Assembly (NCBI RefSeq): GCF_000829315.1
Contig: NZ_AP013028.1
Coordinates: 30,001 to 62,000 of the forward strand
DNA: 32,000 bases
Source of the DNA: Wolbachia endosymbiont of Cimex lectularius
Lineage (GTDB): Bacteria; Pseudomonadota; Alphaproteobacteria; Rickettsiales; Anaplasmataceae
Direction: 5' to 3'
Part shown: piece after piece, positions 6,058-32,000 of the stretch
Layout of the letters: each line of letters starts with the position of its first letter
Position numbering within the stretch: position 1 is the first letter of the stretch
The notes under the pieces: generated by a model
What the model saw: the letters and a program-made list of their open reading frames with translations, nothing else
Told to the model about the DNA's origin: nothing
The model's database searches: none
Program-made: the position numbers and the translations under genes

Positions 6058-6343
6058 AAATCTAAATCAACTGGAACAGGATCCGTATCTACCGTCAGTC
6101 TTAGTAGATTCCTGAGACCTAAAGTTAAAGTGGGCATCACGTATTAATTTCAACGAAATCAATAGAGACAATTCCCTTGACTAGAAATTATCGCTCGGGA
6201 AATTTAACTTAACTCATAACGTATAGAACAGACCCTTATAATTATAGCTAGTTTACACAAGTTGTGTCTATATGTATATTGCAGTCAACAATAAAACTAA
6301 CTATCTTTATTAAACTTTGCATTTTAAGTGTTACGGTCAATAA

Positions 6344-9330: not shown

Positions 9331-9760
9331 GACCTCTCGCATATCAAACTAGTTTTGGCATATGCGAAAAAACTACTTGACAAGTTCCTCCAAACCCATT
9401 ATCATGTTATTGGAGCTATTCATTTAGCTTCAATCTGTGCACCTTATGTCTTTATTAATTTTACCTAGACTTCTAGGTTTTTCCCTATACAAGCTGAAAC
9501 GCGCTTATAAGTCGTTTAGGACAGTATAGTACGCCAATTTGCAGGATTAGAGAGTGAGCAACTTCTACCACGGGACTCTTTTGTCTTTTTTTCTGCTTAG
9601 TAAGTTTCTTAGCACTTAAGCTAAGGGTCTGTTGCAGTTTAAAAGTCGCTAAATTGCAGCGTTTAAGACTTAAAAAAACGCCAATACTAAAAATAAATAC
9701 CGACCAGGGTTTCTTTTGCTTTTTTCTCCGTTTAGTAAATTTCTTAAATATTTATTACTA
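9331..9760 (+). repeat. promoter-bearing intergenic element, copy A
   Basis: Aligns by eye with 15574-16010, 28300-28809 and 31711-32000. It has a leader, an A-tract, the promoter, a small inverted repeat and two tandem modules (9490-9612, 9631-9748). No ORF of 60 aa or more. Confidence 0.8.
9377..9405 (+). promoter_or_regulatory. sigma70-type promoter of element copy A
   Basis: TTGACA (9377-9382), 17 nt, TATCAT (9400-9405), with the A-tract aaaaaact directly upstream of the -35. Confidence 0.6.
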
Positions 9761-9774
9761 AAGTAGTATCCAGG

Positions 9775-9797
9775 ATCTCAGTGTCAGCTACTGGGAT
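9775..9797. repeat. short palindromic unit (atctcagt-gtcagct-actgggat)
   Basis: An 8-bp stem (one G-T pair) with a 7-nt loop, at the 3' flank of element copy A. A related unit sits at 28836-28860 after copy C. Confidence 0.5.
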
Positions 9798-9972
9798 GAC
9801 AAGCTACTTGGTGTATTTTTGTATCAGAAAACACTTGCTAAGGCTTTTTGGCCGCTTATAGATAGACTATAGCACTTCGTTTTTTGTAAACTTTCTCTGT
9901 CTTTGGTAATTTGTTTTAACATAGATAAAATAAACTGTGTATTTTTTTTAATAAATTGACTATGCTAAAAAC

Positions 9973-14311: not shown

Positions 14312-15565
14312 GTGATGGATAAAAAAGCGTTATTAGAATTAAGCAATGGATTAAAGATTGAGCTACCCATATTAAACGGAACAATAGGTCCTGATGTATT
14401 AAACATTAAGGATTTGTACAGGACAACAGGGTTGCTTACTTATGATCCAGGGTTTGTTTCCACAGCTTCGTGTTCTTCCGCAATTACATTCATTGATGGA
14501 GATGAAGGGGTTCTTAAGTATAGGGGACATAGTATAGCTGATTTAGCAGAGAATAATGATTTTACTGCTGTAATTTACCTATTACTCTATGGTGAGTTAC
14601 CTAATTTAGAGCAACACAAAAAGTTTCTTTTGAAAATAGAGGAATTATCTAAAGTGCCAGAGCAGGTTGTAAACGTAGTTAAAGCATTTCCAAAAACTGC
14701 TCACCCTATGTCGATTTTGATTGCATGTTTTGCGAGTTTGTCAGCACTTTACCACGAGAGACATGGCAACAACGTCAATAGTGAAGATCTAGATTTTGGA
14801 ATTTCTGCAATAGCGCAAGTTCCTGCAATTGTTGCAATGATATACAGGCATATCAACAATCAGGAATTCATAAATGCCAACAATGAATTGAGCTATAGTG
14901 AAAATTTCTTAAGGATGATGTTTGGCGATGCTTTTGATAATGATAAAAGTGCCCTTTTTGCAAAAGCTCTGGATAAAATATTTACTCTTCATGCTGACCA
15001 TGAACAAAATGCTTCTACAGCGGCTGTCAGGTTGGTGGGATCAGCCGGTTCTAGCTTGTTTGCAAGCCTCTCTGCAGGAGTTGCTACACTTTGGGGACCA
15101 GCGCATGGTGGTGCTAACGAGGCAGTTATAAATATGCTAAAGGAGATAGAGCAAAGTGGAGATATAGATAAGTTCATTGAAAAAGCTAAAGATGATAAAG
15201 ATCCATTCAAATTGATGGGGTTTGGTCATCGTGTTTACAAAAATTATGATCCACGCGCACGCATATTGAAGGACGCCTGTAATGAGGTTTTGGGTAAACT
15301 GGAACAAAGTAGTGAACTGCTCAAGATTGCAAAAAGACTTGAGGAAATAGCTTTAAAGGATGAGTATTTTGTTGTGCGCAAGCTATATCCGAACGTTGAT
15401 TTTTACTCAGGTATAATAATGAACGCTATTGATATTCCTTCGAATATGTTTACGCCTATTTTCGCACTTGCAAGAACTACTGGTTGGGTTACTCAGTGGT
15501 ATGAAATGGCAAATGACAAAGAAACTAAAATCAGCAGACCAAGGCAGCTCTATATTGGTAAATAA
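14312..15565 (+). CDS. gltA: citrate synthase
   Basis: 417 aa. Signature GFGHRVYKNYDPR and the HADHEQNAST active-site region. Confidence 0.95.
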   Translation: MMDKKALLELSNGLKIELPILNGTIGPDVLNIKDLYRTTGLLTYDPGFVSTASCSSAITFIDGDEGVLKYRGHSIADLAENNDFTAVIYLLLYGELPNLEQHKKFLLKIEELSKVPEQVVNVVKAFPKTAHPMSILIACFASLSALYHERHGNNVNSEDLDFGISAIAQVPAIVAMIYRHINNQEFINANNELSYSENFLRMMFGDAFDNDKSALFAKALDKIFTLHADHEQNASTAAVRLVGSAGSSLFASLSAGVATLWGPAHGGANEAVINMLKEIEQSGDIDKFIEKAKDDKDPFKLMGFGHRVYKNYDPRARILKDACNEVLGKLEQSSELLKIAKRLEEIALKDEYFVVRKLYPNVDFYSGIIMNAIDIPSNMFTPIFALARTTGWVTQWYEMANDKETKISRPRQLYIGK

Positions 15566-15573
15566 ACCTTCAT

Positions 15574-16010
15574 GAGACCTCTCACATAGTTTCTAGCAGC
15601 GCGCTAGGCGTATAACAACCGTCATTCAATAGAAACAAAAAACTACTTGACAACCTTCACCAACCCTGTTATTATGAGACTGAAGCTATTTGTTTAACTT
15701 CCCAATCTGTGCACTGCATGTCTTTTTAAAACTTCGGGGTTTTTACCCATACAAGCTGAAACGCGCTTATAAGTCGTTTAAGACATCACCCAACGCCGGA
15801 TTTTAAAATAGAGAGTGAAATAACTAGCTACCTCGGGGTTTTATTGTCTTTTTCTTCTGCCTGGTAAATTTCTTAAATATTATAGCTTAGACTAGTTGCG
15901 TTTAAAAGCAGCTAAATTGCAGCGTTTAAGGCATAAAAACGCCAATACTAAAAATAAATACCGACCGGGGCTTCTTTTGCTTTTTTTCTTCGCTTGGTAA
16001 ATTTCTTAAG
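15574..16010 (+). repeat. promoter-bearing intergenic element, copy B
   Basis: Same architecture as copy A, with modules at about 15752-15876 and 15895-16010. Module 2 is nearly identical to module 2 of copy A. Confidence 0.8.
15647..15675 (+). promoter_or_regulatory. sigma70-type promoter of element copy B
   Basis: TTGACA (15647-15652), 17 nt, TATTAT (15670-15675), with an upstream A-tract. Confidence 0.6.
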
Positions 16011-16222
16011 CATGAAGGTTATACCAATTTTCGTTATCAAACAAGATACATAATAAATTCGCTAAATCTCTCATCGTAGGGAAACTTTTTATTTACCATT
16101 GGGATTTGGTATAATGATGTACCAAGACATTACCTTTAACTGTTGCCTTATGTTTGATATACGGACCATTGATTAGCAGGGAAATTGTTTTACTTTTATG
16201 ATTTTCATGTTAAAGTATAACC

Positions 16223-16568
16223 CTAGGTGAAATAAGTAGCTGCTGTTGTGTGATAAGCACAGCAGAGGAAAGTCCGGGCTCCAAGGAAAAATAGTGACGG
16301 GTAACGCCCGCCGGGGGTAACTCCAGTTATAGGGCTACAGAAAATTACCGCCTAAAGTATTTTAGGTAAGGGTGAAAAGGTGTGGTAAGAGCACACCATA
16401 ACAATGGCAACATTGGTAGTCGAGTAACCAACACTAGGAGCAAGATTAAATAAGAGTAGACCTTATGTTTTTCTTCATATCTACTCGGGTAAATCGCAAG
16501 TAGTAAATGGTAACATTTACTCCAGATAAATAGCTACATAAACAGAACCCGGCTTATATTTCACCTAG
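16223..16568 (+). ncRNA. rnpB: RNase P RNA (bacterial type A)
   Basis: Contains GAGGAAAGTCCGGGCTCC and the 3' partner ACAGAACCCGGCTTA (the P4 strands). The terminal P1 helix pairs ctaggtgaaataag with cttatatttcacctag. About 346 nt. Confidence 0.92.
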
Positions 16569-16615
16569 ACACTCACATAAATATCAATTATGCCGTATTC
16601 AAATGTATAAGCACT

Positions 16616-19958: not shown

Positions 19959-20753
19959 CTTATACATACCCTTGTTGAGCGGTTATAAATTTTTACGTCT
20001 GTTTTAAAAGTACTATGTTTTTTTTGTATGAAGTAGTTTTATGATTAATTTTAATATTATTCTTTCTTTCTTATTCCAAATTGAAAGTGGATAATAAAAT
20101 TAAGGCCTACAACATCAAAATATTATAATAAGTAACTTAATTGATACTGTGGATGATGGGTTTTATATTTGGGATGCAAAAAAACGTATAGAAAAGTTTT
20201 CTCCTAACTTACTAGTTTTACTTAATACTGTTTTTTACTCATTTAATGAGTTTGTCAACTTTTTTGAGCAATCGGAAAGCTTAATTAAAAATTTTACTGA
20301 GGCAAAAAAAGTGAATAAATCTTTTACTCTGGACTTGAAGTCAAAAGACGGTGAAGTTTACTGTATATGTTATGGCAGAAGCATAATAGACAACTCTAAT
20401 AGCGTAATTGGTGTGCTGTTGTGGATAAGAAACGTCTCAGACTGCAAGATAAAAGCTAACGAATTGGAGTCAGAAAATAGTAAGCTTAAACAAAAAGTAG
20501 AGAACTACAGGAGCATTCTTAACTCTCTGCCGTTTCCAATACTAAAATATAATGAAAATAAAAAAGTAAAGTTTTGCAACCTATTTTATGATAAATATAT
20601 CAATAGCTCCCAGAGATTGGCTGTTACTGATAGTGCCCACAGCACCAAACCAGGAAAACATGTGATAACTTGCAAAAACGAACGCAAGGTTTTTGATTTT
20701 ATTAGAACCTGTTTAAAATCTTCGTAACAGGAGAGAAATGAAGGAGAGGACTA

Positions 20754-21176
20754 TCATCTGTAAGCTAGTGTTGAGCTTCCGCTCGCAATTTTTCCCAATC
20801 GCCTGCACTTTTCTAACCAGGCAAAAGAGCGTTCAACAACCCATCTTTTTGGCAATACGACGAAAGTGTGTAACTCACTTCGCTTTATTACTTCAACAGT
20901 CGCACCAATGATAGCTTTTATTTGTGTTGCAAAATTTTCTCCTGTGTAGCCAGCATCAACCAGTATGTTTTTAACTTCAGAGAGGTTTGCTTTAGCATTT
21001 TCGACCATTTTCACAGCACTGCTACGGTCAGTTGCTTCTGCCGTTGTTACATAAATTGCATGTGGCAAACCTTGTGTATCAACTGCAATATGGCGCTTTA
21101 TCCCTGAAATCTTTTTACCTGCATCATAGCCTTTTTTTTTCAGCAGTATCTGCGTTTTTAACGCTTTGAGAATCAA
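20754..21176 (-). pseudogene. transposase DDE segment of the outer IS copy, C-terminus frameshifted
   Basis: Identical to the inner copy up to EKCRRL, then diverges because of the 1-nt deletion. Confidence 0.8.
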
Positions 21177-21300
21177 TTATACAAAAGCTAGTTTTCTCCT
21201 TCCGACCATTGCTGATACGGACCTCTCCAACTAATTTTTTTTAAGAACCTGTTTAAAATCTTGGAAATGTGAGGTAAAGTAAGCATAGATTAATAATGAG

Positions 21301-21621
21301 GTGTCTATGCAGAAAAGTTATCCAAGTAATATAAGTCAAGAGCAGTTTGAAAAAATCAGGCCAATTTTGGAGAGTAGCAAGCAGAAAACAAAACCAAGAA
21401 AACTTGATTTGTATGACGTATTTTGTGGGGTGTTGTACGTCTTAAAAAGTGGTTGTCAGTGGAGGATGTTACCAAAGGGTTTTCCAAGATGGGAAAGCGT
21501 ATATTACTATTTTCGAGTGTGGAGTAAAAAGAATGGAGAAGAGCCAGGCTTGTTGGAATTAGTCTTAAAAAAAATTAGTTGGAGAGGTCCGTATCAGCAA
21601 TGGTCGGAAAGAGAAAACTAG
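21301..21621 (+). CDS. IS5-family transposase, N-terminal segment (inner copy)
   Basis: 106 aa. The DLYDVFCGVLYVLKSGCQWRMLP region is typical of the IS4/IS5 transposase N-terminal domain. The last 21 residues are out of frame after the A8 run. Confidence 0.8.
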   Translation: MSMQKSYPSNISQEQFEKIRPILESSKQKTKPRKLDLYDVFCGVLYVLKSGCQWRMLPKGFPRWESVYYYFRVWSKKNGEEPGLLELVLKKISWRGPYQQWSEREN

Positions 21622-21632
21622 CTTTTGTATAA

Positions 21633-22097
21633 TTGATTCTCAAAGCGTTAAAAACGCAGATACTGCTGAAAAAAAAAGGCTATGATGCAGGTAAAAAGAT
21701 TTCAGGGATAAAGCGCCATATTGCAGTTGATACACAAGGTTTGCCACATGCAATTTATGTAACAACGGCAGAAGCAACTGACCGTAGCAGTGCTGTGAAA
21801 ATGGTCGAAAATGCTAAAGCAAACCTCTCTGAAGTTAAAAACATACTGGTTGATGCTGGCTACACAGGAGAAAATTTTGCAACACAAATAAAAGCTATCA
21901 TTGGTGCGACTGTTGAAGTAATAAAGCGAAGTGAGTTACACACTTTCGTCGTATTGCCAAAAAGATGGGTTGTTGAACGCTCTTTTGCCTGGTTAGAAAA
22001 GTGCAGGCGATTGTGGAAAAATTGCGAGCGGAAGCTCAACACTAGCTTACAGATGATAGTCCTCTCCTTCATTTCTCTCCTGTTACGAAGATTTTAA
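21633..22097 (+). CDS. IS5-family transposase, DDE C-terminal segment (inner copy)
   Basis: 154 aa containing GYDAGKKISGIKRHIAVDTQGLP, LVDAGYTG and RWVVERSFAWL. The first ~15 residues in the track are out-of-frame translation upstream of the A9 run. Confidence 0.8.
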   Translation: MILKALKTQILLKKKGYDAGKKISGIKRHIAVDTQGLPHAIYVTTAEATDRSSAVKMVENAKANLSEVKNILVDAGYTGENFATQIKAIIGATVEVIKRSELHTFVVLPKRWVVERSFAWLEKCRRLWKNCERKLNTSLQMIVLSFISLLLRRF

Positions 22098-22108
22098 ACA
22101 GGTTCTAA

Positions 22109-22372
22109 GACTAATTCCAACAAGCTTGGCTCTTCTCCATTCTTTTTACTCCACACTCGAAAATAGTAATATACGCTTTCCCATCTTGGAAAACCCTTTG
22201 GTAACATCCTCCACTGACAACCACTTTTTAAGACGTACAACACCCCACAAAATACGTCATACAAATCAAGTTTTCTTGGTTTTGTTTTCTGCTTGCTACT
22301 CTCCAAAATTGGCCTGATTTTTTCAAACTGCTCTTGACTTATATTACTTGGATAACTTTTCTGCATAGACAC
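22109..22372 (-). pseudogene. transposase N-terminal segment of the outer IS copy, cut by the inner insertion
   Basis: Same 5' sequence as 21301..21621 (one G/S difference). The track ORF 22094..22372 reads across the junction into the inner IS end. Confidence 0.8.
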
Positions 22373-22879
22373 CTCATTATTAATCTATGCTTACTTTACC
22401 TCACATTTCCAAGATTTTAAACAGGTTCTTAGAATTCCAATGCAAAATTTTGGTGGTGCGGTAATATATGGAAAAGATGTTAGCGATGCAGAGGAGTTAC
22501 GTGCTAGACTAGATAGTTATTTAGCTGCACAGAAAAGTTTACTTGAGGAGTTACCAATTGCTATTGCAATATACAGTAAGAATCAAAAACTGAAGTTTCA
22601 TAATAATGCTTTTGTAAAAACCTTTCAACTTGATACAAAGTTTTTGGCATCCCATCCAACTTATCATGAAGTCATGCTTTACCTATTCGAATCTCAGAAG
22701 CTTTTAGAACAAAAAGATTTTCAAACTATTAGCAACCAAAGGCATGAATTATTCAAAAGATTATTTGGACCGCATAATGATACAATCCATCTTACAAATG
22801 GAAAAATGTTCAGGATATTGATAATACCCTATGCTTCAGAAGGTTTACTCTTTTCCTATGAGGAATGCAAAAGGTAGCC

Positions 22880-23668
22880 TCAAACTCCTTCTCTTCCTAC
22901 CATAAGCTGCTTCATTTTCGCTATTGCTCTTGCTGGATTAAGTCCTTTAGGGCAAGTTTTTGTGCAATTCATTATTGTATGACAACGATACAACTTAAAC
23001 GGATCATTCAAGGCATCAAGTCTCTCATTTGTCTTATTATCACGGCTATCAGTGACCCATCTGTAAGCCTGTAGCAGTATTGCTGGTCCTAAAAATTTAT
23101 CACTGTTCCACCAATAGCTTGGGCAGCCAGTTGAACAACAAGCACACAATATGCAATCAGAAAGGCCATCCAGTTTCTTTTTATCTTCAGGAGATTGTAA
23201 ATACTCTTGATTTGGTAAGTCAGGTTTATCTGCTTGTAACCAAGGATTAATTGACTTGTACTGCTCATAAAATTGACTCAGGTCCGAAACTAGGTCTTTT
23301 ATTACATACATATGGGGTAGTGGATATATTTTTACGTCACCCTTTATATCGCCTATGGATTTAGTACATGCAAGAGTGTTGGTTCCATCAATATTAATAG
23401 CACAAGATCCACATATCCCTTCTCTACAAGAACGTCTGAAGGTTAAGGTTGAATCTATTTCATCCTTTATTTTTATTAATGCGTCAAGCACCATAGGGCC
23501 ACAATTATCCATATCAATGAAAAACGTGTCTACTCTAGAATTTTTCTCATCATCAGCAGACCAACGGTAAATTTGAAATCTTCTGACGTTTTTTACTCTA
23601 GCAGGAACAGGGTAGACCTTGCCCTTTTCATTAATTTTAGAATTCTTCGGCAGAGAAAACTGGACCAT
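22880..23668 (-). CDS. sdhB: succinate dehydrogenase iron-sulfur subunit
   Basis: 262 aa. Cluster motifs [22 protein letters not shown] and [12 protein letters not shown]. Confidence 0.95.
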
Positions 23669-28299: not shown

Positions 28300-28809
28300 A
28301 CTAGACTTTTTGCATAGTTTTTAGCAGCGTATGTCACCCAATAGAAACGAAAAAAACTACTTGACAAATTCCTTCAACCCCCTTATAATGAGACTGAAGC
28401 TATTATTTATCTTCAGTCTGTACAGATAAAACGACAAAAAACTCAATGTACTTGGCGTCTCATGTTTAATTTTTTGCACTATGTGCACCTCATGTCTTTA
28501 TAAACTTTCAAGGGTTTTACCTAATATAAGCTAAAATGCGCTTGTTAAAGCATTTAAGACAATAAAAAACGCCAATTTAAAAGATAGATAGTGAATAACT
28601 AGCTAACGGGGTTTCTTTTGCCTTTTGTCTGTTTAGTAAATTTCTTAACGTTTAAAATTAGGTCAATTGCGGTTTAAAAGCAGCCAGATTAGACGTTTAG
28701 AATAAAAAAACGCCAATTTATAAAGTTAACATAAATAATTAGCTACTAACGGGGCTTCTTTTGCTTTTTTTCTTTACTCGGTAAATTTCTTAAATATTAT
28801 GGCTAAAGC
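28300..28809 (+). repeat. promoter-bearing intergenic element, copy C
   Basis: Same architecture as the other copies. The 9-bp inverted repeat AGACTGAAG-N11-CTTCAGTCT is at 28391-28419, and the modules are at about 28527-28648 and 28665-28793. It has about 55 extra bp relative to A and B after the inverted repeat. Confidence 0.8.
28361..28389 (+). promoter_or_regulatory. sigma70-type promoter of element copy C (perfect consensus)
   Basis: TTGACA (28361-28366), 17 nt, TATAAT (28384-28389), with the A-tract gaaaaaaact upstream. Confidence 0.65.
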
Positions 28810-28835
28810 AATTCATGAACCAGGCAGAAAGGTGT

Positions 28836-28860
28836 CATTCCAGCGCATGACGCTGGATGG
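28836..28860. repeat. short palindromic unit (tccagcg-catga-cgctgga)
   Basis: A 7-bp perfect stem at 28839-28857 at the 3' flank of element copy C. It occupies the same relative position as the unit after copy A. Confidence 0.5.
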
Positions 28861-28992
28861 CTTTGTTGTAAACTGACTTTTACTATATGATTACCTTTTT
28901 ATGGCATCTTGTCTATCTCATTTTACCATTCCGCTGAACAGATATAAAATATTTAATAAACTCTTTTTTTTCAACAAAAACACATAATGGAC

Positions 28993-31710: not shown

Positions 31711-32000
31711 GACTTCTCACATAGTTTTTGGCAGCATGCTAGGTGTATAGAAACAAAAAAAACTGCTTGACAACCTTCACCGACTTCATTATCATAGTAG
31801 TAAGGGTATTTCTGACTCAAAACTTGTTTTTGATCTGTAGGCTCAATGACAAAATTCAGTAAAAAACTCAGGGTATTTTTTGGCGGATTGTATCAAATTA
31901 TAGCGGCTGCATGTCTTTTTCATTTTTTCTACATTCAGCCAAATCGCGCTTGAACTAAGCGTCAGTAAATTATTATAGCGCCAATTTAAAGTATTATAGA
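31711..32000 (+). repeat. promoter-bearing intergenic element, copy D (runs off the window)
   Basis: The leader gacttctcacatagttttt, the A-tract and the promoter are conserved. The transcribed 5' part has diverged. It rejoins the family at gcatgtcttttt and gcgccaatttaaa, the start of module 1, at the window edge. Confidence 0.7.
31767..31795 (+). promoter_or_regulatory. sigma70-type promoter of element copy D
   Basis: TTGACA (31767-31772), 17 nt, TATCAT (31790-31795), with the A-tract caaaaaaaact upstream. Confidence 0.55.

Follow-up and report, generated by a model that had tools for sequence, protein, structure and literature searches.

What are the four similar intergenic stretches that lie within 32 kb of this Wolbachia genome, and is the promoter that each of them appears to carry being maintained? 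In the window, by which we mean the whole stretch of 32,000 nt that was analyzed, one repeat occurs in four copies (A to D), all of them intergenic and on the + strand. An earlier note on this DNA had aligned four + strand stretches, and a repeat search of the window confirmed them, with pairwise identities of 77 to 85% and a mean column identity of 62% in the alignment of the window copies. As seen in Table 1, the copies share a common layout of promoter, 5' unit and modules. In the repeat search, the promoter block formed a 4-copy family (9367-9431, 15637-15701, 28351-28415 and 31757-31821), and module ends of ~41 nt formed a 6-copy family with members 133 to 145 nt apart. The tandem pair of modules that had been described downstream of the promoter was recovered in copies A, B and C by both the repeat search and nhmmer. 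The two modules within one window copy are ~65 to 80% alike, and Tandem Repeats Finder gave no rows on the window copies because the modules are too diverged.

Table 1. Coordinates of the four repeat copies and of their parts within the window.
Feature	Coordinates	Strand	Remarks
Copy A upstream leader, variable	9331..9366	+	Family-wide conservation absent
Copy A promoter	9367..9405	+	A-tract 9367-9372 (UP-element-like), -35 TTGACA 9377-9382, 17-nt spacer, -10 TATCAT 9400-9405
Copy A 5' unit, internally deleted	9412..9486	+	Predicted start G 9412; homologous to wMel RACE 5' ends
Copy A weak hairpin plus T5, within 5' unit	9463..9482	+	Terminator scan
Copy A module 1	9487..9613	+	nhmmer with the copy C module as query; repeat search
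Copy A module 2	9625..9762	+	nhmmer; repeat search
Copy B promoter	15637..15675	+	A-tract 15637-15642, -35 TTGACA 15647-15652, -10 TATTAT 15670-15675, TG before the -10
Copy B 5' unit, internally deleted	15682..15748	+	Predicted start G 15682
Copy B modules 1 (15749-15876) and 2 (15893-16013)	15749..16013	+	Repeat search, nhmmer
Copy C promoter	28350..28389	+	A-tract 28350-28356, -35 TTGACA 28361-28366, -10 TATAAT 28384-28389
Copy C 5' unit, full length	28396..28520	+	Predicted start G 28396
Copy C modules 1 (28521-28651) and 2 (28654-28811)	28521..28811	+	Repeat search, nhmmer
Copy D promoter	31755..31795	+	A-tract 31755-31762, -35 TTGACA 31767-31772, -10 TATCAT 31790-31795
Copy D divergent 'D-type' 5' unit and beginning of module	31802..32000	+	Ends at window edge

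Copy C represents the full-length form, with a start-proximal hairpin (CTGAAG-N11-CTTCAG) in its 5' unit. Copies A and B lack ~58 nt inside the 5' unit, which measures ~125 nt when full and ~70 nt in these two, and the deletion is bounded by CTGTGCA microhomologies (~9435-9441 and 15709-15713). In its closest relative, the Wolbachia MAG L180, copy B has a full-length ortholog. The D-type subtype of copy D was also found in L180 (18267-18466, - strand) and in Ca. W. massiliensis (L185:20794-21095). A leader of the form ctc(a/g)catag, which the earlier note had listed as a shared feature, did not hold up, since the motif is present in only 9 of 61 sampled copies. The statement that all copies lie on the + strand is correct within the window and breaks down beyond it, where relatives have copies on both strands. 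Replication bias was considered for the one-strand arrangement and found unsupported: copies A and B lie in positive GC skew, C and D in negative, and the relatives are two-stranded.

The suspicion that this might be an already catalogued Wolbachia repeat proved right, and the family itself is known. As judged by sequence, the window stretches are diverged members of the ARM/VNTR-associated intergenic repeat family, specifically of the repeat that adjoins VNTR-105. ARM, the 'A-supergroup repeat motif', was described as a 440-bp multicopy intergenic element adjoining VNTR-105, with 24 copies in wMel and a reported absence from supergroups B, C and D (Schneider, Klasson, Lind & Miller 2014, BMC Microbiol 14:121, PMC4029913). 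That paper never mentions a promoter, transcription or a function (PMC4029913), and within the literature searched, the other publications naming ARM use it only as a PCR target. In the wMel IGR-1047 RACE transcript, the primer ARM-F (TTCGCCAATCTGCAGATTAAA) covers positions +18 to +38. The reverse complement of ARM-R was located inside module 2 of L186, the wVitA ARM locus, and by blastn this locus matched window copies B and C with E values of 2e-30 and 8e-29. The window copies are 78 to 91% identical to the wMel RACE inserts. The Woolfit primer IGR-1049 equals window 28477-28498 exactly, in the 5' unit of copy C, the IGR-1021 primer is the exact reverse complement of window 9528-9547, and other primers of that set resemble the modules. 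Within 3 mismatches, neither ARM-F nor ARM-R matches anywhere in the window; they do match L185b, L186 and L228. Therefore, the present lineage would escape ARM PCR or megablast.

The likeness to ARM consists in the positions of its primer sites, one in the 5' unit of the family and the other in module 2, and in a dispersed, intergenic, multicopy distribution tied to tandem VNTR periods. However, the window copies are only ~72 to 91% identical to A-type ARM, their host belongs by gltA to neither supergroup A nor B, whereas ARM had been described as specific to A, and their density is 4 copies per 32 kb compared with 24 per ~1.27 Mb for ARM in wMel. VNTR-105 and VNTR-141 of wMel are intergenic tandem periods of 105 to 141 bp that adjoin ARM (Riegler et al. 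2012, PMC3287509). The Woolfit IGR-921 primers, which belong to the VNTR-105 locus, resemble the module block ..AATAAC..CACGGGGCTTC.., and the VNTR-105 and VNTR-141 periods may be homologous to the window modules, although each window copy carries two diverged modules and the wMel VNTR loci carry arrays of near-identical periods. By primer or insert sequence, the wMel intergenic regions IGR-1047, -1021, -1049, -446 and -921 (Woolfit et al. 2015, PMC4349823), all with high RNA-seq signal, belong to the same family. Woolfit et al. treated these as individual loci whose repetitiveness made them difficult to assay and described no shared-promoter family; none of them was named as an sRNA, and ncrwmel01 and ncrwmel02 are different sequences (PMC4349823). 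With its 300 to 520 bp, its complete promoter and long transcribed body and its lack of consistent inverted ends, the ARM-type family also differs from the Correia elements of Neisseria. The latter are multicopy intergenic repeats with functional promoter elements that can alter the transcription of neighbors, and they are MITEs of ~100 to 150 bp with terminal inverted repeats and target duplications.

The citrate synthase of the window shares 97% identity with the L180 protein, compared with 90% or less for every named strain. In a crude distance tree of this one gene (gltA), on which the lineage placement is based, neither the window nor L180 falls within the A+B clade; supergroups A and B are ~92% identical to each other, and the window is 87 to 89% identical to both. 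Related loci were reached through citrate synthase homologues and then searched by nhmmer. This search yielded four copies on both strands in the 18.5 kb of L180, three in Ca. W. massiliensis (L185), which we take to be supergroup T, two in a supergroup A genome (L246) and one in a further non-A/B lineage (L247). No copy was detected by nhmmer in a wAlbB-type locus of supergroup B (21 kb) or in the wFol locus of supergroup E (21 kb). Against the reported restriction to supergroup A, the family occurs outside it, in the lineage of the window and L180, in Ca. W. massiliensis and in L247. A search with the transcript-internal anchor GGCGTCTNATNTTNAATTTTTNGCA retrieved 58 metagenome stretches and one viral contig; a single metagenome supplied 42 of the stretches, with 45 anchor matches over 42 contigs. 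Almost every anchor match is found no more than ~150 nt from the end of its contig, and many of the contigs measuring 2 to 14 kb carry a copy at each end, which is the way in which a dense high-copy repeat breaks assembly. Short-read assemblies with an identical citrate synthase likewise end inside copy B.

Across the 32 kb, the promoter pattern TTGACA-N17-TATNAT has exactly four matches, always on the + strand and each time inside a repeat copy; the chance expectation is 0.05, and four occurrences were reached in none of 100 shuffles. The hexamers and the 17-nt spacer had been read correctly in all four copies, with an invariant TTGACA and TATCAT, TATTAT, TATAAT and TATCAT as the -10 of A to D. 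A scan of a genome collection with the promoter pattern returned 57 matches, all of them chance consensus promoters in unrelated bacteria and none in Wolbachia, and a loose 15-base pattern run over viral contigs produced only noise. Conservation was measured on 56 distinct copies that were collected through the anchor, hence not selected on the promoter, and aligned without gaps from -60 to +30. Many of these copies share one metagenome as their source and are thus not independent. The -35 reads TTGACA in 51 of the 56, the -10 is TATCAT in 45, TATTAT in 8 and TATAAT in 1, and the spacing is 17 nt wherever both hexamers are kept. The mean majority fraction is 0.96 for the hexamers, compared with 0.72 for the spacer and 0.69 for the 6 nt from the -10 to the start (the discriminator). 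Conservation is about 0.9 in the A-tract plus CTAC (about -46 to -36) and 0.88 in the first 30 transcribed nt, and upstream of -50 the majority fraction is 0.3 to 0.5. The promoter is thus maintained, as had been proposed, and the possibility that the hexamers are no better kept than their neighbors fails on this 56-copy profile.

Copies identified solely by homology in supergroup A and supergroup T genomes also keep TTGACA-17-TAT[CT]AT. Nevertheless, decayed copies exist, with the -10 lost in L180b and L247 and a -35 of TTGATA in L180c, indicating that the constraint does not act on every copy. Within the same transcript class, the spacer plus discriminator differ by 33% and positions +1 to +48 by 5%. 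At least six promoter-core classes are found with a single transcript class, and five transcript classes share a single core class, so that cores and bodies have been reshuffled while the hexamers and their spacing stayed fixed. The L180 ortholog of copy B has another core allele and identical downstream sequence.

Transcription of the family has been recorded in wMel. By 5' RACE on IGR-1047 and IGR-1021, the 5' ends were located at the G of GAAG(C/G)..ATT, and the RACE inserts of two wMel family members open with GAAGCTATT.. and GAAGGCATT.. (Woolfit et al. 2015, PMC4349823). This G lies 7 nt past the -10 and is homologous to window 9412, 15682, 28396 and ~31802, the four positions at which starts had been predicted from the window. 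In A-type copies, TATCAT-GAAACT-G stands directly upstream of the sequence at the RACE start. The RACE relied on TAP treatment and lacked a minus-TAP control (PMC4349823), so that in principle these 5' ends could have arisen by processing. The two RACE positions are absent from the Cappable-Seq supplement lists, probably since multi-mapping reads were discarded. In the wMel RNA-seq data (PMC4349823), the ARM/VNTR-105 locus IG-921 has ~1037 normalised reads compared with 9 to 22 at its neighbors and IG-446 has 392 compared with 18 to 34, although reads that map to several repeats inflate or blur such counts. The RACE product of IGR-1047 is at least 330 nt long and runs through module 1 (PMC4349823).

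The earlier note had also proposed an sRNA of ~70 nt that ends at a hairpin of copy A, ACCTAG-actt-CTAGGT plus a T-run. The terminator scan did pick up this hairpin; a general sRNA of this kind is not supported, as the hairpin plus T-run is subfamily-specific (5 of 38 copies) and the wMel product is much longer. No intrinsic terminator was found that defines a 3' end across the family, as would be expected of a discrete sRNA. Global folding of the copy C transcript and of its reverse complement gave z values of 0.07 and 0.19, and RNAalifold returned -1.7 kcal/mol with one compensatory pair for 24 5' units and -0.7 kcal/mol with none for 37 modules. The sole constant structure is a 4-bp hairpin at the transcript start. 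The absence of coding capacity claimed for the repeat was borne out: no ORF of at least 60 aa overlaps any window copy, and the best common hexapeptide is present in only 6 of 18 diverse copies, single copies containing short ORFs of 35 to 67 aa. In Rfam, no match at the gathering threshold falls inside the repeat, and the best permissive match, GcvB with 20 bits against a gathering score of 42, lies outside the element. Elsewhere in the window, Rfam locates the 6S and SRP RNAs. Despite the missing fold and ORF, blocks of primary sequence in the transcript are strongly conserved, including the U-rich module block GGGGUUUCUUUUGCCUUUUUU..UUAGUAAAUUUCUUAA, suggesting an action based on sequence or on the act of transcription. 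The reverse complement of the module end was also considered as an antisense to the first codons of clpB and was rejected, with a score of 31 compared with background scores of 29, 27 and 26.

At the DNA level, the copies mark sites of recombination. Copy B joins the gltA-side 5' flank of L180c to the rnpB-side 3' flank of L180b, indicating that the repeats mediated a rearrangement between the window lineage and L180. Prophage WOVitA1 has its recombinase end at L186, where the match to the packaged phage genome stops at L186:7438. The attP reads ..GGACG-TCATGA-TGTGTATAAC.., and its crossover core TCATGA therefore overlaps the last four -10 bases of A-type ARM copies. The same recombinase-side junction was observed in L236, and in L213 the other phage arm is attached, in inverted orientation, at this palindromic core. 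L236 and L213 belong to the metagenome from which most of the window-like copies were obtained. In the window copies, this position reads TCATGT, TTATGA, TAATGA and TCATAG, and the window contains no prophage junction. Integration of sr2WO has been placed in the VNTR-105 locus (Bordenstein & Bordenstein 2016 and 2022, PMC9203015), and WO prophages of this type are flanked by disrupted VNTR-105/ARM sequence (PMC9203015). Compared with the published attB, the junction is narrowed here to TCATGA over the -10 box of the ARM promoter, and the promoter overlap is a refinement of the published integration site.

Taking these observations together, each copy is probably a self-contained sigma-70 non-coding transcription unit of the diverged ARM family, a reading that for this genome draws its promoter use from sequence and from the wMel homologues. 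RNA polymerase with the housekeeping sigma factor would read the A-tract (-46 to -40), which may act as an UP element, together with TTGACA, the 17-nt spacer and TAT(C/T/A)AT, and would transcribe from the G 7 nt past the -10 into the 5' unit. Some transcripts may end at the weak hairpin plus U-run present in some subfamilies only, and the remaining ones would run on via one or two U-rich modules of ~110 to 135 nt each, or more at VNTR loci. Since a defined intrinsic terminator is missing, transcription would sometimes enter the neighbors, more often antisense than sense. We infer that the RNA acts by its sequence, through protein or RNA binding, or that transcription itself matters. In parallel, the DNA copies would serve as substrates of homologous recombination, and their -10/start region would hold the crossover core of serine-recombinase WO phages.

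It is possible, though we doubt it, that the family is instead a selfish or neutral repeat whose promoter looks conserved through youth, gene conversion or transcription-aided persistence. The high copy number with its assembly breaks, the mosaic exchange among copies, the absence of both a conserved RNA structure and an ORF, the presence of decayed copies and an orientation that is random relative to the upstream genes (41 versus 40) all agree with such a repeat, and in the small effective populations of Wolbachia only weak selection is expected on each of dozens of copies. However, recency or conversion would preserve the spacer as well as the hexamers, whereas the spacer plus discriminator diverge by 33% and the hexamers are kept at ~96% with fixed spacing; in addition, the promoter is retained across supergroup A, supergroup T and the window lineage. 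An account in which the repeat is a mobile promoter cassette, with its main role as a strong promoter and 5' leader for the downstream gene, seems unlikely. It is true that, in both the window and L180, a co-oriented AI-2E-family transporter gene follows copy A at a distance of 211 nt and the co-oriented RNase P RNA gene (rnpB, 16223-16572 by Rfam) follows copy B at ~210 nt, and wMel IGR-1021 was found by RT-PCR to be co-transcribed with the downstream CDS (PMC4349823). Nevertheless, rnpB has a promoter-like site of its own (TTAGCA-18-TATGAT, 16173-16202), copies C and D point away from or against their neighbors, and of the loci with a complete 3' end, 21 have a convergent downstream neighbor and 9 a co-oriented one (two-sided binomial ~0.04); the cassette would also leave the conserved modules unexplained.

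The phage junctions raise the question of whether the repeat works mainly as DNA, as a multicopy attB of serine-recombinase WO phages and/or as a site of recombination or nucleoid organization, with incidental transcription. We regard this as very unlikely: the prophage/host junctions at TCATGA within the promoter (L186 and L236, with the other arm in L213), the published sr2WO integration in the VNTR-105 locus and the rearrangement junction at copy B are all accommodated, but an attB of ~40 to 50 bp gives no reason why the -35, A-tract, 17-nt spacing, 5' unit and modules should be conserved, the exact TCATGA core is present in none of the four window copies, and transcription is strong in wMel. 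A broader speculation, which we hold to be quite unlikely, would make the ARM promoter core, composed of the spacer, the -10 and the 6 nt that precede the start, an attachment-site family for WO serine integrases, its cassette-like hypervariability between invariant hexamers a record of phage-host coevolution (escape or specificity switch) and the abundant transcripts a functional lineage-wide ncRNA class. Finally, a remnant of a decayed gene, IS, MITE or type I toxin-antitoxin system is hardly credible. Such remnants might be intergenic, repeated and of this size, might retain the short ORFs seen in individual copies and might be bordered by inverted repeats like the perfect 10-nt pair around copy B; against them, such a pair is expected by chance and is missing from A and C, no terminal inverted repeats are consistent across A, B and C, no peptide is common to more than 6 of 18 copies, Rfam holds nothing credible, and the phage database matches only the WOVitA1 host flank.

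Given that ARM was known, what is modestly new in the self-contained transcription unit proposed here is the occurrence of the family outside supergroup A, the quantified constraint on the promoter with its cassette-like cores, and the phage crossover core within the -10. If there is one promoter-bearing family, then the ARM PCR target, the VNTR typing markers and the transcribed wMel intergenic regions that were too repetitive to assay coincide. Wolbachia is an endosymbiont used in mosquito control and is genetically intractable; if the reading is true, the family would supply it with a strong natural promoter of the sigma-70 type that has an UP-like tract and whose start is mapped, and this promoter and the overlapping phage integrase target would be parts for expression and integration tools. 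Censuses by 'A-specific' ARM PCR and megablast overlook diverged relatives of this kind, and in some lineages the family is a main source of assembly breaks and rearrangement. Overall, these results pose a testable puzzle, namely, why a reduced genome would retain dozens of strongly transcribed non-coding units.

When copy B was set against two family copies in L180, the locus of the window's closest relative, its flanks were split between them. The 5' flank, on the gltA side, is that of L180c, and the 3' flank, on the side upstream of rnpB, is that of L180b. Judged from these alignments, copy B is a recombinant junction, and the matches to two different copies indicate that the window and L180 lineages differ by a rearrangement between two repeat copies. 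Copy B is also bracketed exactly by a perfect 10-nt inverted repeat (AACCTTCATG / CATGAAGGTT), which is at about chance level for 500 nt and was not found at copies A and C. The halves of this repeat sit at separate loci in L180.

The 5' units of copies A and B are short by approximately 58 nt, and the gap is bounded by CTGTGCA microhomologies. Since the L180 ortholog of copy B is full length, the loss is recent, whether it arose by deletion or by conversion from a copy that was already shortened.

Coordinates of the repeat-associated features and neighboring genes (window positions unless a locus is given)
Feature	Position	Strand
Copy B	15574-16013	+
L180 copies compared with copy B	L180:11253-11764; L180:325-842	
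Inverted repeat around copy B	15565-15574; 16011-16020	
Gap in copy A	about 9435-9441	
Gap in copy B	about 15709-15713	
Palindrome 3' of copy C	28839-28869	
Palindrome 3' of copy A	9768-9798	
Att junctions inside ARM promoter	L186:7425-7445; L236:about 1180-1200; L213:150-230; L249:720-745	
IS5-family pair	20702-22434	
Region around the cumulative GC skew peak	about 20000-23000	
Promoter-like TTAGCA-18-TATGAT	16173-16202	
rnpB (RNase P RNA)	16223-16572	+
6S RNA gene	6076-6237	-
SRP RNA gene	2799-2896	-

Att junctions of phage WO with a WOVitA1-type serine recombinase fall within the ARM promoter. Their common core, TCATGA, is palindromic and overlaps the -10 box. Depending on the junction, the transcript side was found joined to either phage arm, which indicates that integration in either orientation, or inversion between copies, took place.

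Two inverted and interleaved IS5-family copies (DUF4096 and DDE transposase ORFs) have arms that are 99 to 100% complementary; at L199, a truncated copy of the ARM repeat family adjoins the same IS end (AGAACCTGTTTAAAATCT). The cumulative GC skew peaks at about 21 to 22 kb, coinciding with this pair and with the switch in gene orientation from + to -, and could be a switch tied to replication or the breakpoint of a rearrangement.

The rnpB gene starts 210 nt 3' of copy B and is directly preceded by a putative promoter; in L180, rnpB likewise has a family copy (L180b) upstream.

Short GC-rich palindromes, of a type common in Wolbachia, lie just 3' of copies C (TCCAGCG-catga-CGCTGGA, then a T-rich run) and A (ATCCAGGATCTCAGTGTCAGCTACTGGGAT), and might serve as terminators for the repeat transcripts. 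In other family members (L185a, L194, and L200), similar palindromes precede the promoter. Upstream of -50, we observed several recurring sequence classes (L187, L189, L193, L225, L240, and others), for example ..CCCACTACACAGAAAG..GACAACAGTGAAAAAAAGTTATAACGTCATCCAATAGAAAC, suggesting that the intergenic regions of this lineage are mosaics of several repeat modules.
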